55,293 bases of DNA, taken from contig CAMTWD010000070.1 of the NCBI GenBank assembly GCA_947085365.1, forward strand, positions 1-55,293, in the 5' to 3' direction. This stretch comes from an uncultured Nitrospirota bacterium. GTDB taxonomy: Bacteria > Nitrospirota > Thermodesulfovibrionia > Thermodesulfovibrionales > CALJEL01. Each line of letters starts with the position of its first letter. Within the stretch, counting starts at the first letter, position 1. Below are positions 1 through 42,125 of this stretch, piece by piece. Under the pieces are notes generated by a model that saw only the letters and a list, made by a program, of their open reading frames with translations, searched no databases and was not told where the DNA came from. The translations under genes and the position numbers were made by a program.

Positions 1-192
1 CAGCTTTCTCATTGCCTCATAATGCCAGTGTTTAAGCATTCTGCCTGATACTGCCGGAGCTTCTTGTCTCATACCATCTTCGTCAAGGAACTCCATTATT
101 CTTATGTCAGTCACATTCCCTGCTACTGCCTCATTGTTGAGGTCGTGGACATTTAACTGAGTTTTTACTGCAAAAGTTACAAATTTAAGCAT
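1..192 (-). CDS. cas7: Cas7 (type I Cascade backbone subunit, DevR/Cst2-like), 5' fragment; the gene continues past the window start
   Basis: Not in the ORF track because it is open-ended. ATG at 192-190 has AGGAGG 6 nt upstream. All 64 codons to position 1 are open. Translation MLKFVTFAVKTQLNVHDLNNEAVAGNVTDIRIMEFLDEDGMRQEAPAVSGRMLKHWHYEAMRKL shows the Cas7 N-terminal pattern. Confidence 0.65.
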   Translation of the reverse strand, partial: MLKFVTFAVKTQLNVHDLNNEAVAGNVTDIRIMEFLDEDGMRQEAPAVSGRMLKHWHYEAMRKL

Positions 193-202
193 ATGACACC
201 TC

Positions 203-553
203 CTATTTTAATGATCTTTCCCTTATTTTATTTTCTTCAATAATTATAAATTTGTTTTCTAAATCAAAAACCTTCTCAAAAACTTTAATAAGGTTGTCCT
301 TTATAAGATTTAAAGATTCAGGATGTATCCTTAAAAGAATAACACCGTTGCTTTTCTTTCCTTCTTTTACAACCAGTTCTCCGAAATCCTTGTCAAAGGT
401 AATTAGAATCCTTTTTTCCTTTGCAGATAAATTTAAGACATCCAAATCTTTCATTCCTTTTTTTACTTCATCAACCCTCAAAATATCATGACCTAATTTT
501 CTTAATTCCATTATCACGCCCATAGGAAGATTTTCGTTAGCAAGGAATTTCAT
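203..553 (-). CDS. PIN-like DUF5615 (Mut7-C-like) protein, putative toxin of a DUF433/DUF5615 pair
   Basis: 116 aa. MKFLANENLP...ILITFDKDFGELV resembles DUF5615. The start overlaps the stop of the DUF433 gene by 4 nt. Confidence 0.6.
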   Translation of the reverse strand: MKFLANENLPMGVIMELRKLGHDILRVDEVKKGMKDLDVLNLSAKEKRILITFDKDFGELVVKEGKKSNGVILLRIHPESLNLIKDNLIKVFEKVFDLENKFIIIEENKIRERSLK

Positions 554-798
554 AAAACAAAAACCTTCTCCTCTTTCAAAATTTCAAGGCTATACTCTAT
601 GGCAGCGAGGATGTCTTCTTTTTGAAGTTGAGGGTAGTTTTTTAAAATTTCTTCTGTGCTCCATCCAGAAGCAAGAAGTTCAAGAATAAACTCTACTGAA
701 ATCCTTGTGCCTTTTATAATCGGTTTACCCACCAAGACCTCGGGATTTATTTCTATTCTATCCTTGTATCGCATTGGAAACCTCCTGGATAGGCTCAA
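550..798 (-). CDS. DUF433 protein, putative antitoxin
   Basis: IEINPEVLVGKPIIKGTRISVEFILELLASGWSTEEILKNYPQLQKEDILAAIEY is the DUF433 signature. The likely true start is the internal Met (MRYKD) at 774. Confidence 0.65.
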   Translation of the reverse strand: MSLSRRFPMRYKDRIEINPEVLVGKPIIKGTRISVEFILELLASGWSTEEILKNYPQLQKEDILAAIEYSLEILKEEKVFVL

Positions 799-2224
799 TC
801 TTTATTGTTTTATAAGACTCAAAGCTAAATGCAAGTAAATATAGAGTCGTGATGACTTGGTGAAAAGATTCTTCATCTGACTGCATTATGTGATTAATCT
901 GTTCAATATCATCTGGATGCGGAAGATGAGGAGGATTCCCATTTGGTTTATTTTTTTCCTGGTCATATCTTAATTTCGCTTCTCTTATCAATTTCTCAAA
1001 TATCTCTCTTACATCTTTGAACGTTTTGGCATTTCTTAAGCCATCTGCAAAAGAATAATTTTGATGGTCCTTATTCCAGACAAAATAGCCTAAGGTTTTT
1101 GCGATAGACCTTACTGCTTTGTTTTTAATTATCTCTTCCTTAATCATTCCAACCTCCTTTAAAAGATATTTTGCTGTTTCTGGGTATAAAAGATTAACAT
1201 AGTTATTTGTTGATGTTTCTTGCACATAAAGGCGGGCAAATTTGGGTAAATTTTTCTTCTCCGAATACTCCAGAATGTTAGTTATTTCAACTAATGATGA
1301 TATTTTGGGCGAATCACTTAATAATTTTATTATCGTAGCAGAATTATACGGTGAGTCCGAAATGAACTTTGAAAACGGTAAAGCATTTACAAAAGCAGTC
1401 TGCTCAACTACTGTGTCTCCTCTGTTATCTTTGGATAACAATGATAAATGAAATTTCAATTTTAATTCATTGACTATATCACTCAAAGAGGGAACTTTTG
1501 CTAAAAGACCGATAAAAAATGTTCTCAAAGGTTGCAAGTCAGAAAGCCAGAAATTATGCAATGTTTTTTGCAAAGCCAGTAGAAATTGCAAATCATCAGT
1601 TGAAAGATTTTCTTCAGGAATAGGCAATACAATTACATATTTTCTATTTTTCCCTTTACCCAATTGTATATTAAAACCAAAAGAATAAAGTCCCAATACA
1701 GCTAAATACCCACAAATTTCACACAGTCCGAGATTGAATGTATCAGAGCGTTTATCTCTCTCGTAAGGCTTTCCAGCGTGAAAAGAGGAAAGTAATATTA
1801 ATCCGCTTCTTCCACCGAATCTTGGAATTTTATCATGTCCACAAAATGTTTTTCTTTTAAAATCGAAATCTAAAACGGCTCGCTCATTAAATATCTGATG
1901 AAAATTAACATTTTTCCTTTTTAATTCGTTTATAATTTTCTCATCAGCAGAATATTTTGTCTTATCCTTTGCCTTAACTCCTAAATCAAAAAATCTATCT
2001 GCAGATAAAAATCTTTGAAGAAACATTAAAAAAGTATCTGATGCTTTGGTAGAAGAATAATGGTTGTAGGAGACTTGATAAAAACCTTTCTGGGGCACTA
2101 ATTGAACTTCAAACCCTGCCTCTATTCCCACTCTTGCCAGTCCGTAGGCAATTTTGATTTCTAAATCGGGAAAGCCTGTGGCTGGTGTATAAAGAGTTAT
2201 CATTTTATTCCTCTGGTAAATCAA
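758..2224 (-). CDS. cas8: Cas8-like large subunit of a type I (I-B/I-A-like) effector complex; exact family undetermined
   Basis: About 480 aa, sitting between cas3 and cas7 in the operon. It has a Cys cluster (FCGHD...LCEICGY). The assignment rests mainly on position. The Met at 2203 (MITLYTP) has an AGAGGA SD and is the probable start. Confidence 0.45.
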   Translation of the reverse strand: MIYQRNKMITLYTPATGFPDLEIKIAYGLARVGIEAGFEVQLVPQKGFYQVSYNHYSSTKASDTFLMFLQRFLSADRFFDLGVKAKDKTKYSADEKIINELKRKNVNFHQIFNERAVLDFDFKRKTFCGHDKIPRFGGRSGLILLSSFHAGKPYERDKRSDTFNLGLCEICGYLAVLGLYSFGFNIQLGKGKNRKYVIVLPIPEENLSTDDLQFLLALQKTLHNFWLSDLQPLRTFFIGLLAKVPSLSDIVNELKLKFHLSLLSKDNRGDTVVEQTAFVNALPFSKFISDSPYNSATIIKLLSDSPKISSLVEITNILEYSEKKNLPKFARLYVQETSTNNYVNLLYPETAKYLLKEVGMIKEEIIKNKAVRSIAKTLGYFVWNKDHQNYSFADGLRNAKTFKDVREIFEKLIREAKLRYDQEKNKPNGNPPHLPHPDDIEQINHIMQSDEESFHQVITTLYLLAFSFESYKTIKIEPIQEVSNAIQG

Positions 2225-2588
2225 AATATTCTCTTATAATCTTTCTTATCTTTTCCATTATTTTTATACATTCCTCAGCTTCGTCTTTTGACACTTCGTA
2301 GCCAGGATATCTTATGTCTACAGCATAGGTTGAAAGCATAGTTAATTCTTTTCTATATTCTTGTAAATTTGGTAAAAATTTTACACAATCCTTAAGTAGA
2401 ATGTTTAAATCGTGGATTTTTTCAAACTCAATATTGTTCTCTTGTAGTATCGCCTTCATGTATTTTTCAACACATTGTTGAGCATGAAAACAAATTACAG
2501 ATAAAAGTTTCATCTCTGGTTTTAATTTATTAACTGCCAAATAATCTTCTTCTGCTTTTTGAATCCACTCTTCAGTAGATTTTTTCAT
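2205..2588 (-). CDS. HEPN domain protein (partner of the upstream MNT domain)
   Basis: 127 aa. WIQKAEEDYLAVNKL...FHAQQCVEKYMKAIL...IHDLNILL...AVDIRYPG is the HEPN (PF05168-like) pattern. The start overlaps the stop of the HD-MNT gene (ATGA). Confidence 0.7.
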   Translation of the reverse strand: MKKSTEEWIQKAEEDYLAVNKLKPEMKLLSVICFHAQQCVEKYMKAILQENNIEFEKIHDLNILLKDCVKFLPNLQEYRKELTMLSTYAVDIRYPGYEVSKDEAEECIKIMEKIRKIIREYFDLPEE

Positions 2589-3661
2589 AAAACTCTCCCG
2601 TCTCTTAAAATTTTCTTTATAAAAAAATCTCCCATTTCTATTCTTTCTTCTATTTGTTGGGGTGTTCTCACTATAATATCTATCGGAATCGTGTCTTCAA
2701 GTTCATAACGAATTAAAGCAGCCTGTTTTCTCACAGGAATGTCTGTATCCATTATTACAAGTAAATCTATATCACTACTCCTTTTAGGAGTTCCATATGC
2801 ATAAGAACCAAAAAGAATTATTTTTTGAGGATTAAACTTTTCTTTTATCTTTTTTGCAATTGCTCTAATTTGCAGGTTATCAACATATCTTTTTATATTC
2901 TCAACCATTAACCATCCTCCGTAGTAGTCTTTATCAGGATCTTTTTGATATTCCTTTCTTTCAGTGGCAGCAGAGACATCGCATAATTTCAATATGTGGT
3001 GACATAAAGAAGCCTGAATTCTTTTTTTGTGCTGTTCAATGATGCGATCTCCTTTTGCCCATTTTCTTAAACCACGCGCCATTTCTTTTAAATCAGATAC
3101 AGTCAATTTATCATAGCCTTCAGGAAATATTTCTCTATCCAATTCTTTGAGATTATCTTCCCATACAATATTTCCATTAAAATCCACAATCCCCTCCAGT
3201 ATTGCCTGCACGTCTGGTCTTTCAATATTGTCCCCTAAAAGTCCTTTGTCTGTATGGTGAATGGCAACTGCGAAACTTACAGGGTTTTTGATGTCATCAG
3301 GAAGAATTTTCCAAAGATAACCTGCACCAATAGAAGCATGAGAAGGAAGAGGTTTATTAGTTCCTATATTTTCCTGCCATTTTTGTATAAGTTTTCCAAT
3401 GTCATGAAACTTTATCATTTTAGAAAGAGCATCTTTTATAATAGATTCATCTTGGATACCAAGTATGCGTTTTAATGTAGGAATGAATACAGGACAGACG
3501 ACTTCAAATTTTTCCATACACCGTTTTATATGGTCTGTATAATTTTCGTTAGGAGCGCTATATAATAAAACACTCATCAGGACAAACCCCCACTTCTTTT
3601 TTATAATATGCTCCATATAGCAAATAGACTCTGAATGGACCAACCCTTTTATCTTTCTCAT
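2585..3661 (-). CDS. cas3'': Cas3'' HD nuclease fused C-terminally to a minimal nucleotidyltransferase (MNT) domain
   Basis: The N-terminal part carries Cas3 HD motifs FHDIGK, SHASIGA, AIHHTDKG and LKLCDVSAA. The C-terminal ~100 aa carry ILFGSYAYGTPKRSSDIDLLVI...IDIIV (pol-beta-type NTase GS...DxD). The first 28 codons overlap cas3, so the probable start is MSVLLY at 3577. Confidence 0.7.
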   Translation of the reverse strand: MRKIKGLVHSESICYMEHIIKKKWGFVLMSVLLYSAPNENYTDHIKRCMEKFEVVCPVFIPTLKRILGIQDESIIKDALSKMIKFHDIGKLIQKWQENIGTNKPLPSHASIGAGYLWKILPDDIKNPVSFAVAIHHTDKGLLGDNIERPDVQAILEGIVDFNGNIVWEDNLKELDREIFPEGYDKLTVSDLKEMARGLRKWAKGDRIIEQHKKRIQASLCHHILKLCDVSAATERKEYQKDPDKDYYGGWLMVENIKRYVDNLQIRAIAKKIKEKFNPQKIILFGSYAYGTPKRSSDIDLLVIMDTDIPVRKQAALIRYELEDTIPIDIIVRTPQQIEERIEMGDFFIKKILRDGRVL

Positions 3662-5228
3662 CTATCTTTCTTTCGTTACCCAATATATCATTAACCACAA
3701 GTTTGTGTTTATTTTCCTTCTCATCGTATTCCCACTTCATCTCCCATCTTATATAGTTTTCTTTAAAATACTTCCATATCACTCCAACATCTACATCTAA
3801 TGAATGTTCCTTTAAATAATCCGGATTATTCTCTAAAAACTTCTTTATTTCTTCTTTTTTATTCATTACCGATTCTGGTAATACTACTAAAGTTGCTGGT
3901 TTACCATCTCTCAACTGTATATTTTTCGGCTCAGTATCTGCATACAAAACGCATTCATAAAGGTCAATCAATGTATCTGCTGCTTCAAAGTCATTGGCTT
4001 TATAATCAAGGAGATTTACAAATTCACAGGCTGCAGTGAAGTTTTTTATATCAAACTTAGAATTTTTCGTTAACCAATCCAGAGTTATATCAATATGTGC
4101 TTTTTCATAAGGCTTGTAACTTTTCTTTTCGTTCTCCAATGGGAAAATAATCATCTCGCCTTTTTCTCCTTCATATCTTGCACATCTTCCTGCCCTTTGA
4201 ACCAGACAATCTGCTGGAGCAATCTCTGTAAGAAGCAGTTCTGCTGAGAAATCTATACCTGCTTCAAGAACCTGCGTTGATACAACTATTCCTACACCTT
4301 CTGGAATAATCATTTTCCCATCTTTTTTATGAGGAATTAATGAAAGGGCTTTCTCTTCGTGCTCTTTTCTGTCAGCCCTTGTAAATCTTGAATGTAAAAG
4401 AACAATTTCATCATCCTTTAGTTCCAGTATATTTTTCAACTCTTCATAAACTATCTGCGCTCTTTTTACCTGATTAAGGACAATAAGGGTTTTTTTGTTT
4501 TTAATTTTTTCCAGCAATTCTTGTGAAATATTAACATTTCCTTGTTCATATAATGGGAAATCAGATAAAGAAATTTTAAGTTCAGAATTTACCACAACAT
4601 CACCTTTTATGATGTTAGAAGACTTTATGTGTATATTTTCAAAAAGACTATTCTTCAAACCTTCAGGCATAGTCGCTGTCATCAAAACAAAAGGGATTTT
4701 ACTTTCATACAGAATCTCCATTAAAGCACGCATTATAGAAAAGGTAAACTCATCCCTGTACATATGCGCCTCGTCAAAAACAACAAGGGAGGAAGCAATA
4801 GAGCCAGCAGGAATATCTAAATGATGACCAACCTGATGACTTGACCTTGCAAATCCGTAAAGAAACTGGTCGAGTGTCGTAACAACTATATCAGCAATAA
4901 AAAAGGGAGCGTTCGGAACATCTCCATGTTGAATTTCAACCTGAATAAACGGTGAGATTTTCTGTGCATATTTTCTTATTCTTTCAGCCACACTGTTTAC
5001 CAGAACCCTCATGGGCAAAACATAGATTAAACGGGGAGCAATTGAGAAATTGTTAGTAATAAACTGTTCCAAAAATGGAGCTATTATTGCCTCAGTCTTT
5101 CCAGACCCAGTGGGTGCTTTTATTAGCAATGGAAACCCTCCATTTTTAACTGCTTCCCATACATCTTTTTGATGTTCAAATGGCTCATGAATTTGGAGAT
5201 ATGTTGCATAAAATTCTTTAATATCCAT
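3558..5228 (-). CDS. cas3: Cas3 (Cas3') SF2 helicase
   Basis: Helicase motifs KAPTGSGKTEA, VFDEAHMY, MTATMP and QRAGRCAR; 556 aa. It sits between cas6 and the HD gene. Confidence 0.85.
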   Translation of the reverse strand: MDIKEFYATYLQIHEPFEHQKDVWEAVKNGGFPLLIKAPTGSGKTEAIIAPFLEQFITNNFSIAPRLIYVLPMRVLVNSVAERIRKYAQKISPFIQVEIQHGDVPNAPFFIADIVVTTLDQFLYGFARSSHQVGHHLDIPAGSIASSLVVFDEAHMYRDEFTFSIMRALMEILYESKIPFVLMTATMPEGLKNSLFENIHIKSSNIIKGDVVVNSELKISLSDFPLYEQGNVNISQELLEKIKNKKTLIVLNQVKRAQIVYEELKNILELKDDEIVLLHSRFTRADRKEHEEKALSLIPHKKDGKMIIPEGVGIVVSTQVLEAGIDFSAELLLTEIAPADCLVQRAGRCARYEGEKGEMIIFPLENEKKSYKPYEKAHIDITLDWLTKNSKFDIKNFTAACEFVNLLDYKANDFEAADTLIDLYECVLYADTEPKNIQLRDGKPATLVVLPESVMNKKEEIKKFLENNPDYLKEHSLDVDVGVIWKYFKENYIRWEMKWEYDEKENKHKLVVNDILGNERKIDEKDKRVGPFRVYLLYGAYYKKEVGVCPDECFII

Positions 5229-5231
5229 CTT

Positions 5232-6014
5232 TTAATTTCTCTCCCCTTTCCATTTTACCTCATTGTGTTTTTCCTCCCACACCTCTATACATCCAAAGCC
5301 CTGGCTGTTTTTGGAGCCCAGGCCTGATTCAAAGGCCATCCTGAACAGTTCCTCTGGAAGTTCAAGTTGATAAAGACCATCCCATCCTTTTATCACTGTA
5401 TTCTTGTAGATTACTATCCTCTCATTCCTTGAACTGACCCTGTAGGGCTTCACGCTTCCGCCCTCAATATCCCTGCCCGTCCATGTTCGGACCTTCCTCT
5501 GGAGATTCCTGATTATGAGGGATTCAAAATCCTTCTCAAAGGGATTGTAGTAATAGGTCTTCTTTCTGCCATCAGGTGTAAGGAGGGTGCTGTAAACAGT
5601 AATTGGAGAAATCGCCTTAACAATGATTTTTTCTTTATAGGCTGGGACAGGCTCAACCTCTACAGCTACAGGTGTCAATGTCTCTCCTGCAAGACAGACG
5701 GTTCCCCATCTCAAGAGATTTGACGCAAAGGACTGAAGAAATTCGTTTAGAGGAGAAGATATTATAACTGTGATAGATCCTTGAAGAAATATCCTACCAT
5801 CTTCCACTCTGGCACCCTTCTCGGGTATGAGGCGAGAAAAGGTGAAGAGTTTTATCCTTCTTTTACTCAATGGATCCTTGTGGCCTGAATCGTGTATCTT
5901 CTTTGAAAGGTATTCATCAAGGTGTCTGTAAATAAAGGCTTGAACAACACCATTATAATGGCATGGAAGGATAAGATAGGATTTCTCAGGTTGAAATCTT
6001 ATCTTAAGCCTCAA
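5232..6014 (-). CDS. cas6: Cas6 CRISPR RNA endoribonuclease
   Basis: 260 aa with FTFSRL and the C-terminal glycine-rich motif GLGSKNSQGFGCIEV. TTG start has an AAGGAGGG SD. Its GC is clearly higher than that of cas3. Confidence 0.85.
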   Translation of the reverse strand: MRLKIRFQPEKSYLILPCHYNGVVQAFIYRHLDEYLSKKIHDSGHKDPLSKRRIKLFTFSRLIPEKGARVEDGRIFLQGSITVIISSPLNEFLQSFASNLLRWGTVCLAGETLTPVAVEVEPVPAYKEKIIVKAISPITVYSTLLTPDGRKKTYYYNPFEKDFESLIIRNLQRKVRTWTGRDIEGGSVKPYRVSSRNERIVIYKNTVIKGWDGLYQLELPEELFRMAFESGLGSKNSQGFGCIEVWEEKHNEVKWKGERN

Positions 6015-6075
6015 AATCCCTCCTTGAAGGATAAATTAATTAATTTAATAATCTGATGTCAAGCCCAGTGGGCTT

Positions 6076-6090
6076 ACAATCGTGATGCCA
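6076..6090 (-). promoter_or_regulatory. sigma54-type -24/-12 element upstream of cas6 (TGGCATcacgaTTGT)
   Basis: Minus strand reads CTGGCATCACGATTGT. GG and TTG are at canonical spacing; the -12 C is replaced by T. It lies 76 nt upstream of the cas6 start. Confidence 0.35.
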
Positions 6091-6148
6091 GGTTATATCA
6101 GGGGGTGAAAAGGTATTCCCTCCAAAATATCCCTTTGCCGAGTATCTA

Positions 6149-6162
6149 CTGTTACCTCGCCA
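6149..6162 (-). repeat. Dispersed repeat copy (variant ATGGCGAGGTAACAG on the minus strand)
   Basis: Plus strand ctgttacctcgcca. This is the leftmost copy, in the flgL-cas6 intergenic region. Confidence 0.7.
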
Positions 6163-9675: not shown

Positions 9676-9688
9676 AGCCTAACCTCCT

Positions 9689-9785
9689 CTGCTACTTTCC
9701 AACTGTTGGGCTACACAGGGGAAATTGCCTTTCTCCTGTGAGACCTCCAACTGTTACTTCGCCACTAAAACTGTTACTTCGCCAC
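9689..9785 (-). repeat. Repeat cluster in the flgM leader: degenerate copy, imperfect hairpin, then two core copies 20 bp apart
   Basis: A degenerate copy lies at 9689-9703. A hairpin cacagggga...tctcctgtg spans 9714-9740, followed by gagacctcca. ctgttacttcgccac occurs at 9751-9765 and 9771-9785. Confidence 0.85.
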
Positions 9786-9807
9786 CTATTACGGTGCCTT
9801 TATTTTA

Positions 9808-9834
9808 TTATCGGCAAAAGATCTTAACCCTTTA
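9808..9834 (-). promoter_or_regulatory. Consensus sigma28 (FliA) promoter for flgM-flgN-flgK-flgL
   Basis: Minus strand reads TAAA-gggttaagatctttt-GCCGATAA, an exact TAAA-N15-GCCGATAA. It overlaps the 3' end of the flgJ-like gene, about 130 nt upstream of flgM. Confidence 0.7.
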
Positions 9835-13770: not shown

Positions 13771-13782
13771 ATCTCCCTCCTC

Positions 13783-13797
13783 CTGTTACTTCGCCAC
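13783..13797 (-). repeat. Dispersed repeat copy in the flgF-flgG intergenic spacer
   Basis: Plus strand ctgttacttcgccac. Confidence 0.85.
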
Positions 13798-13804
13798 TTT
13801 ACTG

Positions 13805-14509
13805 TTATATCCTCCCAAGGTCATTATTTATCTTCCCAGCTGCCTCATCGAGGGTCTGGATCGCCTTCTGAAAGGTCTCAAACTTCCTCAAACCTGCAAT
13901 CATCCTGACCATCTCCTTAATAATCTCCACATTTGACCCTTCAAGATAGCCCTGAAGCACCCCAGAAGAGGGCATTATCCCTGAAGTGGATTGGTAAAGG
14001 CCTTCTCCAACCCTGATGAGGTCTTCCGGTCTTTCAAACTCCACAATCCTTATCCTGTCCACAGGATCCCCATCAAGATATATACTTCCATCTCCCTTTA
14101 TCTCCACCTTCCCTTCAGGCAATCTTATAGGTCCCCTTTCGCCCATCACCTTCTTACCTGAAGAGGTGACAAGATATCCCTCCCTTGTCCTCCTTAAATC
14201 ACCTCTCCGGGTATAAAGACCTTCCTCAAGACTGATAAAACCCCTTCCCTCAATGGCGATATCAAGGTCATTATCTGTTTTTATAAAAAACCCGGGTCTT
14301 AGATCTATCTTCACATCTGCCAGATAGGTCATCCTCCTCTCATCAAAGGGATCATTATTTATGAGATAATCACTGAAGGAGAGGGTCCTTCCCTTAAAGC
14401 CAACTGTATTGGCATTGGAGATATTTTCAGATATAACCTCCATCTCCATCTGCTTCATCAGTGCTCCTGAGAGGGCTATGTATATTGCCTTGTGCATGCC
14501 ATAATACAA
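13805..14509 (-). CDS. flgF: Proximal rod protein FlgF
   Basis: MHKAIYIALSGALMKQMEMEVISENISNANTVGFK aligns with FlgF N-termini. The track start is TTG at 14509; the ATG at 14497 is the probable start. Confidence 0.85.
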   Translation of the reverse strand: MYYGMHKAIYIALSGALMKQMEMEVISENISNANTVGFKGRTLSFSDYLINNDPFDERRMTYLADVKIDLRPGFFIKTDNDLDIAIEGRGFISLEEGLYTRRGDLRRTREGYLVTSSGKKVMGERGPIRLPEGKVEIKGDGSIYLDGDPVDRIRIVEFERPEDLIRVGEGLYQSTSGIMPSSGVLQGYLEGSNVEIIKEMVRMIAGLRKFETFQKAIQTLDEAAGKINNDLGRI

Positions 14510-14524
14510 GCAAATATAATGCCA
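14510..14524 (-). promoter_or_regulatory. sigma54 promoter (TGGCATtatatTTGC) abutting the flgF start codon
   Basis: Minus strand reads CTGGCATTATATTTGCTTGTATTATGGCATG. It is a full GG-N10-GC consensus. The ATG lies 27 nt from the T of TGGCAT, with no SD. Confidence 0.55.
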
Positions 14525-14534
14525 GATCTGATTA

Positions 14535-14646
14535 GTGGCGAAGTAACAGTGAGGGTCAGGGATAGGGGGAGTAATCTTTTGAGATTAAAGGGAATTTTTA
14601 AAGGCCCTGAAAGACCCCTTAAAGACCGTCACTGTTACTTCGCCAC
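14535..14646. repeat. MITE-like 112-bp unit with perfect 18-bp terminal inverted repeats made of the dispersed repeat
   Basis: gtggcgaagtaacagtga at 14535-14552 and tcactgttacttcgccac at 14629-14646 flank about 76 bp. Confidence 0.8.
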
Positions 14647-14655
14647 CAACGGGAT

Positions 14656-14994
14656 TTATGACGGGAAATTCTTTCCTTCCTGATAATCTTTGCACACCCT
14701 GAGGATGAGCTCCACCTCTCCTGAGGGTATATGGAGTGACTCAGCAATCTCTCTTACAGAGAGCCCCTTTTTATAAAGGGTGATCACCTCGTAACTCCTC
14801 GTCTCCTTATCCCTGAGGCCCTCTGCCTTTTCAAGGAGTGTCTTCAGGAGCTCCACCTTATCATCAATCCTCTTCTCCATTGCCTTGAGCTCTGTCAGCT
14901 TCTTCTCTATCCTTTTTAAAATAAGGTCTGCCAGCTCCCTCATCTCCTTAACCTCTACAGGGATATCCTTCCTCCTGAGTATCCCTCTAAGCAT
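14656..14994 (-). CDS. Small coiled-coil protein with a C-terminal HTH (flagellar-operon associated, DUF2802-like?)
   Basis: 112 aa. The C-terminal LSVREIAESLHIPSGEVELILRV looks like an HTH. No firm family assignment. Confidence 0.4.
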   Translation of the reverse strand: MLRGILRRKDIPVEVKEMRELADLILKRIEKKLTELKAMEKRIDDKVELLKTLLEKAEGLRDKETRSYEVITLYKKGLSVREIAESLHIPSGEVELILRVCKDYQEGKNFPS

Positions 14995-16430: not shown

Positions 16431-17247
16431 CCTCCATCAATGCCCTTAATCTCGTAATTGCCTGGCTGTGGATCTGGGATACCCTGCCCTCTGTAAGGCC
16501 GAGAACCTTTGCGATCTCCTTCATGGTGAGTTCATCCCAGTAATAAAGGGAGATAACGAGCCTTTCCCTCTCGGGAAGCCTCTCTATAATCGAGGCAATC
16601 CTCTCTTTCAGCCTCTTTTCTTCATAGAGCAGATCGGGTGTCTTGAAGTTCCTGTCTGGTATGGAATCCTGAAGGGAGAGTTCATCATCATACCTTGAAT
16701 CCGAAAAGTCCTCAAACCTCATTGTAATGGAGGAGGAGAGTTCACTAAGTAATTTGAAATACTCATCAAGAGAGATATTCAGTGCCTCTGCAAGCTCCTC
16801 TGCCTCTGGCATCCTGCCGAGCTTTGCCTTGAGATCTCTATGAGCTCCCCTCAAGGCCGTAAGTTTATTTCTCAATGACCTTGAGAAGGTCATGTTTGAC
16901 CTTATCTCATCGATCATGGCCCCTTTTATCCTCTGCTTCACAAAGGACTCAAGTTTACCGAGCTCCTCTTTATATCTCTCAAGGGACTCAAGCAGTCCGG
17001 TAATTCCTGCACTTATCAGATCATCTATAGTAAGCTGTGGTGGAAGCCTCCAGCTCAATCTCAAGGCAGTGTATTTAATATAGGGGAGGAAGGATCTGAT
17101 TACCTCCTCCACTGTTACCTCGCCACCTCCTGTTGGGGGTACACAGGGGGAAACTTTGTTTCCCCCTGTGAGACCCCCAGCTGTTACTTCGCCACCAGCT
17201 GTGACATCCTCTTTAACAGGATTATCCACAGCTATCCTCCACCCCAT
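16417..17247 (-). CDS. fliA: Flagellar sigma factor FliA (sigma28)
   Basis: Region 2 DDLISAGITGLLESLERYK and region 4 LTMKEIAKVLGLTEGRVSQIHSQA. The first 45 codons consist of repeat and hairpin modules. An alternative GTG start lies at 17112, with GAGG supplied by the repeat. Confidence 0.85.
   Translation of the reverse strand: MGWRIAVDNPVKEDVTAGGEVTAGGLTGGNKVSPCVPPTGGGEVTVEEVIRSFLPYIKYTALRLSWRLPPQLTIDDLISAGITGLLESLERYKEELGKLESFVKQRIKGAMIDEIRSNMTFSRSLRNKLTALRGAHRDLKAKLGRMPEAEELAEALNISLDEYFKLLSELSSSITMRFEDFSDSRYDDELSLQDSIPDRNFKTPDLLYEEKRLKERIASIIERLPERERLVISLYYWDELTMKEIAKVLGLTEGRVSQIHSQAITRLRALMEDEDV
17112..17195 (-). repeat. Composite repeat: core variant, 13-bp-stem GC hairpin, GAGACCCCCA, core copy
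   Basis: ctgttacctcgccac at 17112-17126. Hairpin cacagggggaaac-ttt-gtttccccctgtg at 17142-17170. ctgttacttcgccac at 17181-17195. Confidence 0.85.
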
Positions 17248-29124: not shown

Positions 29125-29136
29125 GCATGGAGAATA

Positions 29137-29151
29137 TCAAAATCTATGCCA
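29137..29151 (-). promoter_or_regulatory. sigma54-type element (TGGCATagattTTGA) abutting the fliK start codon
   Basis: Minus strand reads CTGGCATAGATTTTGATATTCTCCATGCATG. The ATG lies 27 nt from the T of TGGCAT, identical to flgF. The -12 C is replaced by A, and there is no SD. Confidence 0.4.
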
Positions 29152-29153
29152 GG

Positions 29154-29267
29154 ACTTAGTGGCGAAGTAACAGTACTTAGTGGCGAAGTAACAGTATGAA
29201 ATTGCCCTGAAAAGAATATTTTTCTAAAAAGGTGAAGAGACCGGGAACTGTTACTTCGCCACTAAGT
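29154..29267. repeat. MITE-like 114-bp unit: two direct 21-mers plus one inverted 21-mer
   Basis: acttagtggcgaagtaacagt at 29154-29174 and 29175-29195. actgttacttcgccactaagt at 29247-29267. Confidence 0.85.
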
Positions 29268-29277
29268 AAGGAAATTT

Positions 29278-29808
29278 TTACCTCAATGGAATCCTTTTCC
29301 TCTCTTCAGCTGTTACTTCGACACTAAGTGCAGAGAGGTGCTTTGTAATTGCTGCCACCTTTGAGGGGTCCATTGTGGCAAGGATTGCACCTGCCTTTCT
29401 TGGTCTCATCCCTTTTAATATCCTGGCAGCCCTCTCCTCTTCAATGGCCGAGAGTCTTATCCCTGCCTCTTCTGGGGGCATAGACTCATAAACCTTTACG
29501 AGATACTGCAGATCCTCTGACCTCTTCTGTTCTATTCTGTCCAGGAGGGCATTTATCTCTTTTAAAAGCTCTGAATATCTCTTAATCTTCTCATCGAGCT
29601 CCTTTTTAAGGGCTTTGAGCCTTTCTTCTTCTATCTTAAGGGCTGCCTCCCTTTCGTCAAGTGCCTTCTGCCTTTTCTGGATGAGCGTCACCGGATCATC
29701 CTGACAGTAAAGTAGGTCAGGTAAGAGGAGAGAGAGAACAAAGATGATAGCTCCAAACTTAGTGGCGAAGTAACAGTACTTAGTGGCGAAGTAACAGTTC
29801 CTACTCAC
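29278..29808 (-). CDS. YlxF/MotE-like protein with an MgtE-N-type domain
   Basis: PPEEAGIRLSAIEEERAARILKGMRPRKAGAILATMDPSKVAAI. Position between fliJ and fliK matches Bacillus ylxF. The N-terminus carries two CYFATK repeat translations. Confidence 0.6.
   Translation of the reverse strand: MSRNCYFATKYCYFATKFGAIIFVLSLLLPDLLYCQDDPVTLIQKRQKALDEREAALKIEEERLKALKKELDEKIKRYSELLKEINALLDRIEQKRSEDLQYLVKVYESMPPEEAGIRLSAIEEERAARILKGMRPRKAGAILATMDPSKVAAITKHLSALSVEVTAEERKRIPLR
29310..29324 (-). repeat. Variant repeat copy near the 3' end of the ylxF-like gene
   Basis: ctgttacttcgacac; encodes SVEVTA. Confidence 0.7.
29762..29797 (+). repeat. Two repeat copies 21 bp apart at the 5' end of the ylxF-like gene
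   Basis: gtggcgaagtaacag at 29762 and 29783. Confidence 0.85.
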
Positions 29809-35888: not shown

Positions 35889-35935
35889 TTATACCATCAC
35901 CTCCCTGTTGCCTCACACCACCAACTCCATACATT

Positions 35936-35950
35936 CCAATTTTCGTGCCA
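35936..35950 (-). promoter_or_regulatory. sigma54-type promoter upstream of flgB (TGGCACgaaaaTTGG)
   Basis: Minus strand reads CTGGCACGAAAATTGGAA, 62 nt upstream of the flgB ATG. A GGGAGGTGA SD follows. Confidence 0.5.
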
Positions 35951-35989: not shown

Positions 35990-37297
35990 TCACCGGGAAA
36001 TCCTTTCCTCATAAGGAAATTCCTGCCTGTATTGGTTTAATTTGTTCCTGATAGTCCTCACACTCACTCCGAGGATCTTTGCTGCCAGTGTCTTATTCCC
36101 TCCTGTCTCCTCTAAGGTCCTGAGGATCAATTCCCGCTCTATCTCCCTGATCCTCCCTAGCTTCGGGTATTGTATTGAATCCTCAAGCATGAGGTCTCCT
36201 GGCTCGATAACCTCCCTGTTACAGAGGAATACCGCCCTCTGAATCACATTCTCCAGCTCCCTCACATTTCCCCTCCAGGGTCTCTTAAGAAGGATCTCCA
36301 TAGCCTCTTCAGAAAATCCCCTTATATCCTTTCCTACCTCACGGGAAAACCTCTCAAGGAATCTTTTACTTAAGAGCTGGATATCCTCAGGTCTTTCTCT
36401 CAAGGGTGGTAGTTTTATGGGAAAGACATTGAGTCTGTAATAGAGATCCTCCCTGAATCTCCCCTCCCTTATCTCAGAGGGTAGATCCCTGTTTGTGGTG
36501 GCAATAACCCTTACATCAATACTTATTGACCTCGTAGAACCAAGCCTCTCTATGGATCTCTCCTGAAGAACCCTCAGAAGCTTTGCCTGAAGGTGAAGGG
36601 GCATCTCACCAATCTCATCCAGAAGAAGGACCCCGCCATGGGCAAGTTCGAATCTGCCCTTTTTCGTCTCATGAGCACCTGTGAAGGCACCCTTCTCATA
36701 ACCGAAGAGTTCTGATTCAAGGAGATTTTCTGGAATGGCTGCACAATTAACCGCAACGAAAGGTCCATGAGCCCTTTTACTCCTTCTGTAAATATACCTG
36801 GCAAGGAGCTCCTTTCCTGTCCCACTCTCACCAGTAATAAGGACAGTGATATCGCTCATGGCAAGATGATCCGCTATGGTGAGTATCCTCTTCATCTCTG
36901 GATTTGCTGTTATAATCTCCTCTTCATGAAAGCCCTTTCCCTCAAGTACTGACTCTATTGCCCTTTTAAGGATTTCGATAGAAAAGGGCTTCATTATATA
37001 ATCGGTGGCACCACTCTTCATGGCATTCACTGCATTCTCCACTGTTGCATATCCTGTAATGACGAGCACAGGGATCGCCCCAGCAATCCTTCTTATCTCC
37101 CTTATCAGGGCAATCCCATCCATACCTGGCATCTTCATATCTGTAATCACTAAGGAATAGCCCTTCTCCTTCAATCTCCTGAGGGCAGATGCCCCTGATT
37201 CCACCACATCTGCAGAATAACCAAGACTCTTCACAGCCTCCCTCAGGGCAATCCTCATCTGGCTGTCGTCATCCACTATCAGAATAGGGGCCTTCAT
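35990..37297 (-). CDS. sigma54-dependent response regulator (NtrC family; FleR/FlrC/FlgR-like)
   Basis: Receiver domain (ILIVDDD...ITDMKMPGMDG), AAA+ domain ([14 protein letters not shown]) and C-terminal Fis-type HTH. Confidence 0.9.
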   Translation of the reverse strand: MKAPILIVDDDSQMRIALREAVKSLGYSADVVESGASALRRLKEKGYSLVITDMKMPGMDGIALIREIRRIAGAIPVLVITGYATVENAVNAMKSGATDYIMKPFSIEILKRAIESVLEGKGFHEEEIITANPEMKRILTIADHLAMSDITVLITGESGTGKELLARYIYRRSKRAHGPFVAVNCAAIPENLLESELFGYEKGAFTGAHETKKGRFELAHGGVLLLDEIGEMPLHLQAKLLRVLQERSIERLGSTRSISIDVRVIATTNRDLPSEIREGRFREDLYYRLNVFPIKLPPLRERPEDIQLLSKRFLERFSREVGKDIRGFSEEAMEILLKRPWRGNVRELENVIQRAVFLCNREVIEPGDLMLEDSIQYPKLGRIREIERELILRTLEETGGNKTLAAKILGVSVRTIRNKLNQYRQEFPYEERISR

Positions 37298-38508: not shown

Positions 38509-40534
38509 AGAGATCCTCCTTAAGCCTCTTCAATAATAGGGTCTCCTCAGCAAGGAGGCCAGTAAGGTTCGTAGAAAAAGGTGCTGTCTTATTCCCTGAA
38601 TCCTCTCCTGTGATTACAGAAACCCTATAGATTGTCCAGTCCATCTCCTGGGGTGTAAGTTCTCTCTTCTTCTCATCGGAGAGGGCAATCCTGTAATATT
38701 TCAAGGCGTCATCCCTTTTCCCTCTTTCGTAAAGAAGGTCTGCAAGCCTCACATAGGAGGATGCATCAGCACCATATTTATCTATGAGCCTCTTTAAAAG
38801 TTCTATGACCCTTCCTTCCTTTGTATAAAGGGAGATGGTCATGAGGGTGGGGATATCCTCTTGCTTCAATTCCTTTATCTTAATAAGGTGATCAAGTCCC
38901 TTCTTATAATCACCCCTTTTTACCAATGTCATGGCATATGTCCTCTGCTCGCGGTCTGTTAAGGGTATGATGTTACTGATCATGGTAAAGGCCTTCTCAA
39001 CATCACCAATGGAGAGATAAAACTGGGCCATCAAAAAAGAGGCTCTCCTCTTTTCTTCTCCTTTAGTCTTTCTGAAAAGCCATGAGGAGAGTTCAAAAAA
39101 TTCCTTTTTAGATTCCCCCATGAGTTCTGCAACCCTGAAGAGAAAATCTGTATTTGAGGGGTCAAGGAATAATCTTGAAAAGTCCCTCCATATAGTGATG
39201 AATTCCTCTCTATTACTTCTGCCTGCCTCAAGGAGCGTATCCTTCAGAAACCTCATCGCCTCCTGAGAAGGGTCTCTTTTTAATATCAGTGGCAGGAGGG
39301 TACGGGCAGACTCCCTAAGCTTATTCCCTTTTCTGTAAATCTCTGCCTGCAATAGAAGTGCCCTCTCGTAATCCTCTCCGTAGGGATATAGGGATCTCAG
39401 TGCAATGAGCCTCTTCATTGCCTCATCAGATCTGCCAAGTCTTATGAGTGATTCGGCACTCATAAGAAGTGCCTTCTGCCTTAGAGATGGCCCAACTGCA
39501 GGAACTGTTACCTCGCCACTGGCAACTGTTACCTCGCCACTAAGTGTTGAGTGAAGGATCTGTTCAAAGTATTTCAGGGCCTCCTGAGGTCTGTTCCTTT
39601 TTAATTCCAGTATCCCGAGATCCAGATAGGCCCTGTATCTCAGGGGAGCCTCTTTTACTGATGTAAGATACCTTATTGCCTCTTCATATCGACCCAGGGC
39701 CAGCCTATTCTCCCCTATATAAAGCCTTGTCTCTGGAGAGGTCTTTATAAATCCCGTATCCCTGAGGAGCAGATCAATATAAAGCTTATTTGCCTCTGAG
39801 ATCCTTCCCATGAGATGAAGGGTATTTGCCTTTCCAAACTGCACTGCCATGGAATCCCCTGCCATCTCATAATATTTGAGGGCCTCCTGATAAAGACCCT
39901 GTGCCCTGAGGGATTCAGCAATACCATAGAAGGCCTCTCTTTTATACTGAGATTCGGGAAAGAGCCTCAACAAAAGCCTGTAGGCCACAGTTGCCTCAGG
40001 ATAAAACCTCATTCGGGCATAAAGATCTGCCCTTTTAAAATGCGCCTCTTCCTTTATCCGTCCAGTTCCATAGGAGACTGCCCTTTGAAGATGCTCAAAG
40101 GCCTCATAATACCTGTTAAGGCCTATTAGAACCTTGGCATAAAGGAGATGGTATAGACCCCTCTCTTCTGCAATGGGCCTTACAGATTGAAGAAGGCTGA
40201 GGCCCTTCCTTAATTCACCAGATTTTATAAGCTCGGAAACCTTAGTAAGATCCTCACTTTGTGGCGAACTACCACCACCCTTCGTGGCAAAGGAAAGGTG
40301 CTGAAGTAAAGAAAAGAGAAAGAACAGAATAAAGAGGAGGGTCTTCCACCCTCTGCACTGAGTGACGAAGTAACGCTTCAAGCCTCCTGAGAGCCTCATG
40401 CCAGAGAAAAAGCAATAAATATGCCAGAATAGAACTACTTGATTAGTAAAGGTTTTTCTGGAAGGTGTCACTTTAATGACATGGGTGGCAAAGTAACAGT
40501 AGGGGGTCTCACAGGGGGGAACGACGGGTCGCAC
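38486..40534 (-). CDS. TPR-repeat protein
   Basis: Many TPR-like AxxYY/ALKYY repeats. The probable start is the Met at 40399 (MRLSGG...), followed by a TM segment; the upstream extension is repeat-derived. Confidence 0.75.
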   Translation of the reverse strand: MRPVVPPCETPYCYFATHVIKVTPSRKTFTNQVVLFWHIYCFFSGMRLSGGLKRYFVTQCRGWKTLLFILFFLFSLLQHLSFATKGGGSSPQSEDLTKVSELIKSGELRKGLSLLQSVRPIAEERGLYHLLYAKVLIGLNRYYEAFEHLQRAVSYGTGRIKEEAHFKRADLYARMRFYPEATVAYRLLLRLFPESQYKREAFYGIAESLRAQGLYQEALKYYEMAGDSMAVQFGKANTLHLMGRISEANKLYIDLLLRDTGFIKTSPETRLYIGENRLALGRYEEAIRYLTSVKEAPLRYRAYLDLGILELKRNRPQEALKYFEQILHSTLSGEVTVASGEVTVPAVGPSLRQKALLMSAESLIRLGRSDEAMKRLIALRSLYPYGEDYERALLLQAEIYRKGNKLRESARTLLPLILKRDPSQEAMRFLKDTLLEAGRSNREEFITIWRDFSRLFLDPSNTDFLFRVAELMGESKKEFFELSSWLFRKTKGEEKRRASFLMAQFYLSIGDVEKAFTMISNIIPLTDREQRTYAMTLVKRGDYKKGLDHLIKIKELKQEDIPTLMTISLYTKEGRVIELLKRLIDKYGADASSYVRLADLLYERGKRDDALKYYRIALSDEKKRELTPQEMDWTIYRVSVITGEDSGNKTAPFSTNLTGLLAEETLLLKRLKEDLYGSEASQ
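39505..39540 (-). repeat. Two repeat copies 21 bp apart inside the TPR gene
   Basis: ctgttacctcgccac at 39505 and 39526; encode SGEVTVASGEVTV. Confidence 0.85.
40362..40376 (+). repeat. Degenerate repeat copy
   Basis: gtgacgaagtaacgc. Confidence 0.5.
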
Positions 40535-40560: not shown

Positions 40561-40577
40561 TACCCCCAACAGTGGGG

Positions 40578-42125
40578 TTAACTGATACCCAATCTCTTCA
40601 TCTTCTCAATGAGGGTGGTCCTGTTTATGCCAAGAAGTGCCGCTGCCTTTGACCTCACACCACCTGCCTTCCGGAGGGCATTGAGTATGAGGTTCCTCTC
40701 TGTTTCCTCAAGAACCTTCGCCAGATCGATCCCTCCTTCAGGTATATCCTCCAGGGTTGGTGGCGAAGTAACAGTGCTCAGTGGCGAAGTAACAGTAGGA
40801 AGTCCCTTATCCACCCCTTCTCTCTTCAGGAATCTCTCAGGAAGGTCATCGGGCATCACAACCTCATGAGAGACCAATATCGTCAATCTCTCCACGAGGT
40901 TTTCCAGCTCCCTGACATTTCCTGGCCAGTCATATCTCATTAGTACAGCCAGTGCCTCCTCTGAAAATCTGAGAGGCTTACCCTTTCTCTTCCTCTGAAA
41001 CCTTTTCAAAAAATGATCTAAAAGGAGTGGAATGTCCTCCCTCCTCTCTCTTAGTGGAGGAAGATGGATAGGGATAACATTCAACCTCCAGTAAAGGTCT
41101 TCCCTGAACTTACCCTCTCTTACAGCCTCTTCAAGATTCCGGTTTGTTGCTGCAATTATCCTCACATCCACCTTTATGGTCTTCACACCACCAACCCTCT
41201 CGAATTCCCTCTCCTGTAAAACCCTCAGGAGTTTCACCTGAAGGGATGGATCGAGTTCTCCTATCTCATCAAGAAAGAGTGTCCCCTTATTTGCAAGCTC
41301 AAACCTCCCTATCCTTGTATTAACAGCTCCTGTAAAGGCACCCCTTTCGTGTCCAAAGAGCTCTGACTCGAGGAGGTCCCTCGGGATGGCTGCACAATTT
41401 ATCGGCACAAAGGGGCCTTCAGCCCTTGAGCTGTTGTAGTGTATGGTCTTTGCCACAAGCTCCTTGCCCGTCCCACTCTCACCAGTGATGAGGATCGTGC
41501 TGTCTGTATCGGCTATCTTCTCAATCAGATCGTAAATCCTCTGCATCTTAATGGAATCTCCCACGAGGACTGAAAAGTGATATCTCTGTCTCAACTGCCC
41601 TTTCAGGGCAATATTCTCCCTCTCAAGTCGTGAAACCTCGAGGGCCTTCTCGATAATCAATTGGAGTTCCTCAAGGTTAAATGGTTTAGTAATATAATCA
41701 AAGGCGCCGAGTTTCATAGAAAGCACGGCATTCTGTATCGTTCCATAGGCTGTCATAATGATAACAGGCACCTTTATCCTTCTTGAATTAAGTTCCTTCA
41801 ATATCTCAATACCTCCAACCCTTGGAATCACGAGGTCTATGATGGCAAGGTCAAATCTCTCAGATATCAATAATTCAAGACCTGATTCACCAGAATCAGA
41901 AAGGGTAACCTCGTAACCCTTTTCACTCAGAAAGGTTTTCAACACATCCAGCACAGTGGGGTCATCATCGATAACAAGTATCTTTGCCATATAACTATTG
42001 TAGTGCCCTTTATTCCTTAAGTCAATATTTTGACAACTCTTAATTAAAGTTTTACCCTTGCCATCCGAATTAAAAATAGGAGCCTTCTGTAGTGGAGGTG
42101 TTGGTATGACCATATCTCCCTTCAA
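40578..42125 (-). CDS. sigma54-dependent transcriptional activator with receiver domain (NtrC family; FleQ/FlrA-like candidate)
   Basis: Receiver (KILVIDDD), AAA+ ([14 protein letters not shown]) and Fis HTH. The probable start is the Met at 41990 ([10 protein letters not shown]). The linker carries [13 protein letters not shown] from two repeat copies. Confidence 0.9.
40760..40795 (+). repeat. Two repeat copies 21 bp apart in the AAA+-to-HTH linker of the activator
   Basis: gtggcgaagtaacag at 40760 and 40781. Confidence 0.9.
42045..42071 (+). promoter_or_regulatory. Weak sigma28-like promoter candidate (TAAA-N15-TCCGAATT)
   Basis: TAAA and the 15-nt spacing are exact; the -10 matches only 4 of 8 positions. 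Confidence 0.2.

Follow-up and report, generated by a model that had tools for sequence, protein, structure and literature searches.

The genome of an uncultured member of the Thermodesulfovibrionales (Nitrospirota) raises the question of how the flagellar rod gene flgF is switched on, and whether a repeat lying beside its promoter has any part in this. We analyzed a 55,293-nt stretch of that genome (the complete contig CAMTWD010000070.1, hereafter the window), which holds the main flagellar cluster at 6.2-42 kb on the minus strand. Upstream of flgF, a sigma54-type -24/-12 promoter stands directly before the start codon, and beyond it begins an inverted repeat whose arms are copies of a short unit dispersed through the window. 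An earlier reading made from the letters alone (the sequence-only reading) had proposed that the promoter is positioned for a leaderless flgF mRNA, and that the repeat is a 112-bp miniature inverted-repeat transposable element (MITE) doubling as an upstream activating sequence (UAS). The explanation that best fits our analysis, with a probability of about 0.6, keeps the first half of this proposal and not the second: an ancestral sigma54 promoter, a predicted leaderless flgF mRNA, a repeat that is a passenger, and a palindrome of the form GGAAA-N3-TTTCC as candidate enhancer.

A sigma54 promoter fused to the flgF start codon

The features at the heart of the question are the following.

14509..14524, minus strand: sigma54 -24/-12 promoter TGGCATtatatTTGCT (= TGGCATTATATTTGCT) of the flgF-flgG-flgA-flgH-flgI-flgJ operon, a perfect match to TGGCAY-N5-TTGCW
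14495..14497, minus strand: flgF start codon ATG, with 11 nt between TTGCT and ATG and the predicted +1 at the A or 1-2 nt before it
13805..14497, minus strand: flgF coding sequence, 230 aa, proximal rod protein (Pfam Flg_bb_rod, LlgE_F_G_D1 and Flg_bbr_C)

The promoter reads TGGCAT-N5-TTGCT, one of three perfect sigma54 consensus matches in the window (about 0.1 would be expected from the base probabilities), and its GG and GC dinucleotides stand one helical turn apart, the criterion for sigma54 sites (TGGCAC-N5-TTGCW). As the sequence-only reading had it, the full consensus lies ten bp from the 18-nt core of the inverted repeat, and the flgF start codon, with its A at 14497, comes 27 nt after the T of TGGCAT (14524). 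We take this ATG as the true start, given that the Flg_bb_rod domain begins at residue 5 and that the database protein P0001 starts identically; in codons 2-13, the differences from orthologues are synonymous third-position changes only. The lack of a Shine-Dalgarno (SD) sequence in an otherwise SD-rich window was likewise confirmed: the best anti-SD pairing within the 25 nt before flgF is +0.9 kcal/mol, against -7 to -12.6 kcal/mol for most genes of the window.

Conservation of the distance between promoter and ATG

We compared flgF of the window with ten orthologous loci retrieved via FlgF homologues (identity 49-66%; n = 11 with the window), the nearest of which, at 62-66% identity, are annotated as Thermodesulfovibrionales. 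Synteny is kept across these loci, in the order HDOD gene, small open reading frame (ORF), DUF6115 gene, flgF, flgG, flgA, flgH, flgI. We found a sigma54 site 27-31 nt before the flgF ATG in 11/11 loci, the T of TGGCA being at -27 or -28 in the seven closest fetched loci and at -28 to -31 in three at 49-55% identity. Expressed as the number of nucleotides between the -12 element and the ATG (N11 for 11 nt), the spacing is as follows.

N11: window, L081, L083, L085, L086, L241
N12: L084, L242, L089
N14: L087
N15: L088

No SD precedes flgF in any of the close orthologous loci, while in L088 a good one lies inside the region from -12 to +1. In 105 kb of these loci there are 13 perfect sigma54 motifs, 10 of which have a long ORF with its ATG at N11-N12, and the start codon of such promoter-fused genes is ATG in 17/17. 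As an outgroup we used ten flgF loci with a sigma54 motif, from other phyla and from Nitrospirales, taken from a genome-collection scan for FlgF (identity ≤37%). There the motif is found 41-82 nt upstream and is followed by an SD-containing leader of 14-55 nt, and for this reason we regard the fusion of promoter and ATG as a lineage-specific variant. On this comparative evidence, the sigma54 promoter before flgF and its distance to the ATG are ancestral. The claim of a genuine sigma54 promoter positioned for a leaderless flgF mRNA thus finds support in all 11 orthologous loci, together with the identical spacing at two further operons of the window, and stands as a prediction.

The same arrangement at other operons of the regulon

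The promoters of fliK, of an operon headed by a gene for a TPR protein, of flgB and of the gene for the first of two activators were compared with those of two relatives, L243 and L244.

29136..29151, minus strand: fliK promoter, TGGCATagattTTGAT-N11-ATG, ATG at 29124; N11 kept in L243 and L244; the -12 element has GA for GC
40411..40426, minus strand: TPR-operon promoter, TGGCATatttaTTGCT-N11-ATG, ATG at 40399; perfect motif; N11 kept in L243 and L244
35935..35950, minus strand: flgB promoter, TGGCACgaaaaTTGGA; followed in the window by a 46-nt stretch with a degenerate unit and an SD

The TPR protein (637 aa; the database protein P0121 shares its start) is the product of the first gene of an operon that continues with a histidine kinase and activator 2. 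Neither this gene nor fliK has an SD, the anti-SD pairing being about -1.5 and +0.4 kcal/mol, respectively. The arrangement TGGCAY-N5-TTG(C/A)W-N11-ATG is common to flgF, fliK and the TPR-kinase-activator operon, and in the sequences compared it is conserved in the relatives in all three cases. The flgB promoter is of a different build: in L243 (~14350-14380) and L244 (~6130-6160) it has N13 to the ATG with a strong AGGAGG in the spacer, and in the window (35889-35950) a degenerate unit, GTTGGTGGTGTGAGGCAACAG, is inserted between promoter and SD, giving N46.

The activator-1 gene is preceded by a near-consensus sigma70 promoter (TTGACT at 42025-42020, 17 nt, TACAAT at 42002-41997, 6 nt, ATG), and TTGACT-17-TACAAT-N6/7-ATG is kept in all three genomes. 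Its mRNA is thus also predicted to be leaderless, from a sigma70 promoter, suggesting that the classical leaderless design is used in this clade as well.

Two further perfect motifs were seen away from these operons. The third perfect consensus of the window, TGGCACagttcTTGCT (52234-52249, plus strand), has no ATG at leaderless distance, and the ORF after it, a glycosyltransferase fragment, starts 138 nt downstream. On L184, a repeat-bearing contig from the JGI metagenomes, a 284-aa ORF has its ATG at N12 from a perfect sigma54 motif (~3870-3900, on the minus strand); the spacer contains GGAGG, and this may be a near-leaderless sigma54 gene outside the flagellar regulon.

Predicted transcription start and leaderless translation

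By definition, the C of the GC dinucleotide of a sigma54 promoter is numbered -12, and in the nifH-type geometry +1 is the 11th nucleotide after TTGCW. In Campylobacter jejuni, the distance from the end of the sigma54 motif to the mapped start site is 8-13 nt (PMC3847290), and in Caulobacter the RpoN motif of spmX starts at -26 (PMC4287350), a geometry by which the flgF +1 would fall on the A of the ATG. We infer a flgF leader of 0-2 nt. In the mechanism that we propose, sigma54 RNA polymerase, activated by an NtrC-type activator via DNA looping, would begin transcription on the A of the start codon or 1-2 nt ahead of it, and the first cistron would be translated as a leaderless mRNA, the ribosome binding the 5′-terminal AUG. 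It would follow that read-through RNA from the upstream fliA block is unable to yield FlgF, and making FlgF, FliK and the TPR protein would need activator-dependent initiation.

Comparative evidence strongly supports the promoter together with this predicted leaderless reading. We put forward more tentatively, at a little under even odds, the broader proposal that flgF, fliK and the TPR-kinase-activator operon form a sigma54-initiated, start-codon-fused tier whose translation is licensed by an activator, and that the arms of the inverted repeat belong to a new ultra-short mobile repeat (18-21 nt, or 6-7 codons) that enters both intergenic DNA and, in frame, genes.

Several observations weigh against the leaderless reading. 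Leaderless expression of flgF is predicted from promoter geometry and conservation, and a strict nifH-type geometry would put the flgF +1 on the C before the ATG, giving a 1-nt leader. When the first 36 nt were folded, the three predicted leaderless mRNAs proved no less structured at the 5′ end than 25 other genes. In addition, the -12 elements at the fliK and flgB promoters are non-canonical (TTGAT, TTGAA, TTGGA), and flgB in L243 and L244, like flgF in L088, carries a good SD between -12 and +1, so that some such genes may also be read from longer transcripts.

This last point leads to the view that the sigma54 promoter is real and flgF is nevertheless not leaderless, its translation starting on longer transcripts by SD-independent, A/U-rich initiation of the S1 type, with the tight spacing being a matter of compaction. 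Besides the SD sequences inside promoters, which imply that longer RNAs are translated nearby, the 25 nt before the flgF ATG are A/U-rich, and the stretch from the DUF6115 gene to flgF contains no intrinsic terminator. We consider this view unlikely, as it leaves unexplained a spacing constant to within 1 nt at three independent operons and in up to 11 genomes, the exclusive use of ATG, the loss of the SD at precisely these genes of an SD-rich genome, and the fact that other phyla with a like promoter type have the SD-bearing leader described above.

The overlap of the promoter with a sigma70-like site suggests another reading, in which the repeat itself would make a sigma70 promoter: in a consensus scan, the proximal arm supplies a -35-like TCGCCA (14541-14536), 17 nt from TATATT (14518-14513), the pair having 9/12 matches and predicting a leader of about 9 nt. 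The scan gave 3 such sites where chance would give 2.4, the -35 is poor, and the relatives keep the sigma54 site with no TCGCCA-17-TATATT; moreover, a 9-nt leader lacking an SD would have no obvious translation route. We regard this reading as barely credible, and we hold to the sigma54 promoter and the predicted leaderless mRNA.

The inverted repeat as a probable passenger

The region between the promoter and the gene upstream is composed as follows.

14532..14557, plus strand: promoter-proximal arm, one unit copy (TTAGTGGCGAAGTAACAGT) plus 7 nt; absent from relatives
14558..14623, no strand: interior, single-copy, rich in A/T tracts
14624..14649, minus strand: distal arm, second unit copy (TTGGTGGCGAAGTAACAGT) plus 7 nt; begins 6 nt past the DUF6115 stop codon
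14656..14994, minus strand: DUF6115/DUF2802 gene (112 aa) upstream of flgF, last gene of the fliA-response regulator-HDOD block, identified by its domain and by synteny in relatives

The 18-bp inverted repeat noticed first, with about 76 bp between its halves, is exact: 14535-14552 (GTGGCGAAGTAACAGTGA) and 14629-14646 are perfect reverse complements. It extends to arms of 26 nt that agree at 24/26 positions (92%), with 66 nt between them, and the arms are indeed built from the dispersed repeat, being copies of a unit present 42 times in the window. The reading as a MITE-like element of 112 bp did not hold. We found no second copy of the interior (66-76 nt), either in the window (55 kb) or in the fetched loci (1.9 Mb), and no target-site duplication, the flanks (...agatctga / cgggattt...) having no direct repeat; furthermore, alignment with four relatives whose intergenic region is 92 bp shows two separate insertions, of ~21 and ~31 nt. 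The 76 nt between the 18-nt cores (14553-14628) equal in length the 72-76-nt spacer of the relatives, and the distal edge of the interior, GACGGTCTTTAA, matches their GACAGTCTTAA. From this equal length and edge match, the interior is in all likelihood the spacer that separated enhancer site and promoter ancestrally. Two unit copies would have entered, in opposite orientation, at both ends of this pre-existing spacer, adding ~50 bp that activation by looping would tolerate. Most probably, the inverted repeat does not form a regulatory module.

The second half of the sequence-only proposal, that the repeat doubles as a UAS, concerns the two NtrC-family activators that it had placed nearby, both of which are found in the window; rpoN is not.

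40578..41990, minus strand: activator 1, FleQ/FlrA-like; REC, sigma54 AAA+ domain with GAFTGA, HTH_8
35990..37297, minus strand: activator 2, FlrC/FleR-like; REC, sigma54 AAA+ domain with GAFTGA, HTH_8

With HTH_8 DNA-binding domains in both proteins, enhancer sites are to be expected, and the arms, at ~38-152 nt upstream of the predicted start, lie where enhancers are normally located. A second inverted pair of units adjoins the fliK promoter, where two tandem antisense units (29161-29195) are adjacent and a sense unit (29247-29260) lies further upstream. At both flgF and fliK, and as a degenerate copy at flgF of L241, the antisense unit end GCCACTAA stands 1-7 nt before TGGCAT, with a rough chance probability of 0.003-0.01. 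Against a mobile element of 112 bp whose arms would serve one NtrC-type activator as a UAS, the unit occurs genome-wide, more than half of its copies (24/42) being intragenic, and is present in unrelated, non-flagellar contexts of other organisms. It is absent from the corresponding conserved promoters in L081, L083, L084, L242, L243 and L244, although the HTH recognition helices of both activators are identical between the window and L243/L244, two relatives with flagellar regions free of the unit, and no unit lies within 80 nt of any of six sigma54-like sites in 298 kb of repeat-bearing DNA. From these absences, the unit is very unlikely to be the cognate enhancer; the single-copy interior, the missing target duplication and the two gaps against empty sites speak against the mobile-element part of this reading too, and we consider the whole very improbable.

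Not all of the evidence fits a simple passenger, however. Units stand right against the -24 element of the flgF and fliK promoters and, as a degenerate copy, of flgF in L241, a placement that is mildly non-random; an insertion preference for the A/T-rich, TAA-containing DNA immediately before the -24 element would explain this as well as function would. The similarity of the interior to the relatives' spacer is not significant by alignment score against shuffles (z 0.1-1.6), as is expected at such divergence. Finally, 7 nt beyond the usual end of the unit are common to both arms (chance ~1e-3), which suggests a single duplication or template switch rather than two fully independent insertions, one arm having been copied from, or corrected against, the other. 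A longer composite element was considered as the origin of this extension and rejected: the bases past ACAGT are not conserved among 146 copies, and the neighboring motif GGGGGTCTCAC has no match to the flgF arms within 3 mismatches.

The arms may act in RNA instead. Transcribed as part of read-through RNA from the fliA-response regulator-HDOD-DUF6115 block, they would form a 26-bp hairpin that protects the 3′ end or impedes read-through, a role compatible with the explanation that we favor. The hairpin is predicted to be very stable (-65.4 kcal/mol for the inverted-repeat region, z = -9 against shuffles) and begins 6 nt past the end of the DUF6115 reading frame, and hairpins of the repetitive extragenic palindromic (REP) type are known 3′ stabilizers. 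However, it is no intrinsic terminator, since no U-tract follows it, the relatives manage without it, and the majority of the unit copies, being single or in direct tandem, are unable to form such hairpins; we see a role of this kind as improbable. The whole window had no Rfam match at the gathering threshold, and with E up to 1 the repeat region gave only sub-threshold matches to microRNA hairpins (31 bits, gathering threshold 90), which we discarded as due to the long hairpin. The sigma54 promoter with a passenger repeat remains our preferred reading.

A candidate enhancer upstream of the regulon promoters

A better candidate for the flgF enhancer than the repeat lies just beyond the distal arm.

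14664..14676, no strand: palindrome GGAAAGAATTTCC (GGAAA-N3-TTTCC), candidate flgF enhancer, overlapping the last codons of the DUF6115 gene
14664-14676 (flgF), 29270-29282 (fliK) and 35996-36008 (flgB): the 13-nt GGAAA-N3-TTTCC copies, all three at promoters

The palindrome is present upstream of flgF in 10/11 loci, within the coding sequence at the end of the DUF6115 gene or past its stop, with a one-mismatch variant in L088, and upstream of fliK and of flgB in 3/3 each (window, L243, L244). Several regulon promoters have it 50-150 bp upstream, and the window contains 6 matches to the pattern where 0.66 would be expected. From its conservation and position it is likely the enhancer of flgF. 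At the promoter of the TPR operon it is absent in L243 and L244, and the match near that promoter in the window is an N5 form inside a 44-nt palindromic element described below. Being common to flgF, fliK and flgB, GGAAA-N3-TTTCC is probably a site of activator 2. We infer a scheme of two tiers, analogous to FleQ/FleR and FlrA/FlrC, in which activator 1 would act on the TPR-kinase-activator-2 operon, and activator 2 on flgB, fliK and flgF. In the window, the units between palindrome and promoter lengthen the distance by ~50 bp at flgF and by ~74 bp at fliK; palindrome-to-promoter distances compared by hand for helical phasing were inconsistent across loci.

Two other palindromes were noted. 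GTCAAAATATTGAC (region 41988-42034), which we take to resemble the Pseudomonas FleQ box, overlaps the -35 of the activator-1 promoter and is kept in L243 and L244. GTCATTAAAGTGAC (40467-40480), of the form GTCA-N6-TGAC, lies ~41-54 nt upstream of the TGGCAT of the TPR operon and is not at that position in L243 or L244. A FleQ-type box GTCA-N6-TGAC was considered as a site of the regulon and rejected as too patchy, being found at the activator-1 -35 in three genomes and at the TPR operon of the window, and one mismatch off in four flgF relatives.

The dispersed unit and an associated palindromic element

The core of the unit, GGCGAAGTAACAGT, has 42 copies in the 55 kb with up to 2 mismatches, and its 16-mer has 40 copies with up to 3 mismatches, where 0.22 would be expected. 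The full forms are a 21-mer, ACTTAGTGGCGAAGTAACAGT, in which we found no internal dyad, and an 18-mer, TGGTGGCGARGTAACAGT. Units occur singly, as 11 direct tandem pairs (periods 18, 20 and 21 nt) and as 6 inverted pairs (spacing 27-127 nt). At 4.9 against 0.46 copies/kb they are enriched about 10-fold in intergenic DNA; yet 24 of the 42 lie within genes, where they are translated as (S)GEVTV in sense and as TVTSP(L/P) in antisense. The following copies are in frame.

32645-32658: fliG
39504-39538: TPR gene
40762-40796: activator 1 gene
35031-35044: fliE
37316-37347: 3′ end of the kinase gene
28358-29079: fliK

Compared with repeat-free orthologues, FliG (otherwise 71% identical) has 7 additional residues, STVTSPL, in the linker between its M and C domains, flanked at the DNA level by a 12-nt direct duplication, GGAAGGATAAGG; the TPR protein has an in-frame insertion of 17 aa, and activator 1 has about 11 aa more in a linker. 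FliA differs from three orthologues by 15 additional N-terminal residues, in frame, which stem from a 44-nt palindromic element with a unit on either side. The unit thus colonizes the genome, both in intergenic DNA and in frame inside genes. No transposase gene is encoded in the window, and our literature search on REP-type repeats in Thermodesulfovibrio yielded no report of the unit.

The 44-nt palindromic element, GGGGGTCTCACAGGGGGAAAC-AAA-GTTTCCCCCTGTGTACCCCC, is a second repeat family, always beside or flanked by copies of the short unit; the flanking units resemble duplicated target sites. Its copies are as follows.

17135-17178: in the N-terminal coding region of fliA
40502-40567
31558-31602
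~9705-9748

Elsewhere, the JGI metagenomes Ga0197142, Ga0197143 and Ga0272445 include contigs with several copies of the 18-mer (G+C ~40%, non-flagellar contexts). Scans of metagenomes and viruses with the 16-mer gave mostly single chance matches, the multi-copy contigs coming from these three. In L243, whose flagellar region is unit-free, three unit-like sequences (5620, 6121 and 7858) lie on the coding strand of a ribonucleotide reductase gene, suggesting that the unit is also present at low density in that genome. The 34-nt spacer between flgF and flgG (13771-13804) is largely one unit copy whose end merges into the flgG SD (GTAACAGGAGGAGGG), and several copies in other organisms also stand directly 5′ of an SD.

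Comparison with known systems

The cluster resembles the FleQ/FlrA-FleR/FlrC systems of Pseudomonas and Vibrio and the FlgSR system of Campylobacter and Helicobacter in having rod and hook genes preceded by a -24/-12 promoter, a pair of REC-AAA+-HTH_8 activators with a PAS histidine kinase in the cluster, candidate palindromic enhancers 50-150 bp upstream, and fliA and flgM for late genes, a sigma28-type promoter preceding flgM. Known sigma54 flagellar promoters, like those of the outgroup flgF loci, are followed by a leader of 14-55 nt with an SD; here the promoter is instead fused to the ATG at N11 with no SD. With leaderless mRNAs such as lambda cI and Tn1721 tetR, and those of Actinobacteria, Deinococcus and Caulobacter, the arrangement shares a predicted 5′-terminal AUG, the missing SD, the exclusive use of ATG and a short, constant separation of promoter element and start codon; the gene for activator 1 has the classical sigma70 form. 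Unlike the known cases that we found, which belong to the sigma70 family, a sigma54 -12 element here replaces the -10 box, and the arrangement is specific to one tier of a regulon. The mapped leaderless mRNAs of C. jejuni all come from sigma70 promoters (PMC3847290). Our literature searches on leaderless mRNAs with sigma54/RpoN, or in Thermodesulfovibrio and Nitrospirota, gave no sigma54 case; the leaderless mRNAs that they brought up, in C. jejuni and for Myxococcus pexR, are of the sigma70 type, and none is from Thermodesulfovibrionales.

As for the repeat, very abundant short units of ~20-40 nt that stand alone, in tandem or as inverted pairs, with spacers that vary, an intergenic enrichment of about 10-fold and stable hairpins formed by the inverted pairs, recall REP sequences and bacterial interspersed mosaic elements of enterobacteria and pseudomonads. 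Unlike these, the unit is no palindrome, has 24/42 intragenic copies with in-frame insertions, is conserved as an 18-mer between organisms of differing G+C, and has no RAYT (Y1 transposase) in the window. The Rickettsia palindromic elements are palindromes of ~100-150 bp inserted in frame at tolerant positions of conserved genes and read as innocuous peptides. The insertions in the FliG M-C linker, the activator-1 linker, the FliA N terminus and the TPR protein are like these; the unit, at 18-21 nt, is not, and only the associated 44-nt palindromic element has a similar form. With MITEs, the flgF repeat shares terminal inverted repeats (26-nt arms, 92%, with an 18-nt perfect core), a length of 112-118 bp and a non-coding interior; unlike in MITEs, no target site is duplicated, the interior is unrepeated, two insertions rather than one separate it from the empty site, and the arm units are far commoner alone than paired.

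Sigma54 promoters and leaderless mRNAs are each well known, and we found no report of their fusion across an order and at three operons of one regulon. If true, this would be a natural case in which translation depends on which promoter made the RNA, read-through being silent for the first cistron, and would offer a simple insulation of a checkpoint-controlled tier of flagellar assembly. It would also mean that sigma54 open complexes deliver a 5′-terminal AUG that ribosomes accept, with a bearing on gene-start annotation and regulon prediction in metagenome-assembled Nitrospirota genomes. Separately, the entry of the unit in frame into essential genes (those for FliG, an activator and FliA) represents a little-documented form of genome colonization.

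Organization of the cluster and neighboring regions

In the direction of transcription, the flagellar cluster is ordered as follows.

Part 1: activator 1 (REC-AAA+-HTH_8), TPR protein, PAS histidine kinase, activator 2
Part 2: flgB, flgC, fliE, fliF, fliG, fliH, fliI, fliJ, MgtE_N-like gene
Part 3: fliK, flgD, flgE, fliL, fliM/N, fliO, fliP, fliQ, fliR
Part 4: flhB, flhA, flhF, flhG, fliA, response regulator, HDOD protein, DUF6115 protein
Part 5: flgF, flgG, flgA, flgH, flgI, flgJ, flgM, flgN, flgK, flgL

Upstream of flgM (9676-9830), the sigma28-type promoter consists of TAAAG, ~15 nt and GCCGATAA, and the predicted 5′ untranslated region contains two tandem sense units and a copy of the 44-nt palindromic element, directly 5′ of the SD. 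A divergent block at 42386-50853 has two MotA/MotB pairs, two PilZ proteins, a REC-GAF-HD-GYP-like protein, a response regulator and a PAS kinase, with few copies of the dispersed unit in or near it (42181-42251 and 44771). The left end of the window (1-6100) is low in G+C (33% vs 46%), holds no copy of the unit, and encodes cas6, a Cas3-like helicase and a nucleotidyltransferase/HEPN pair; a sigma54-like site with one mismatch (6075-6090) lies 76 nt before cas6.

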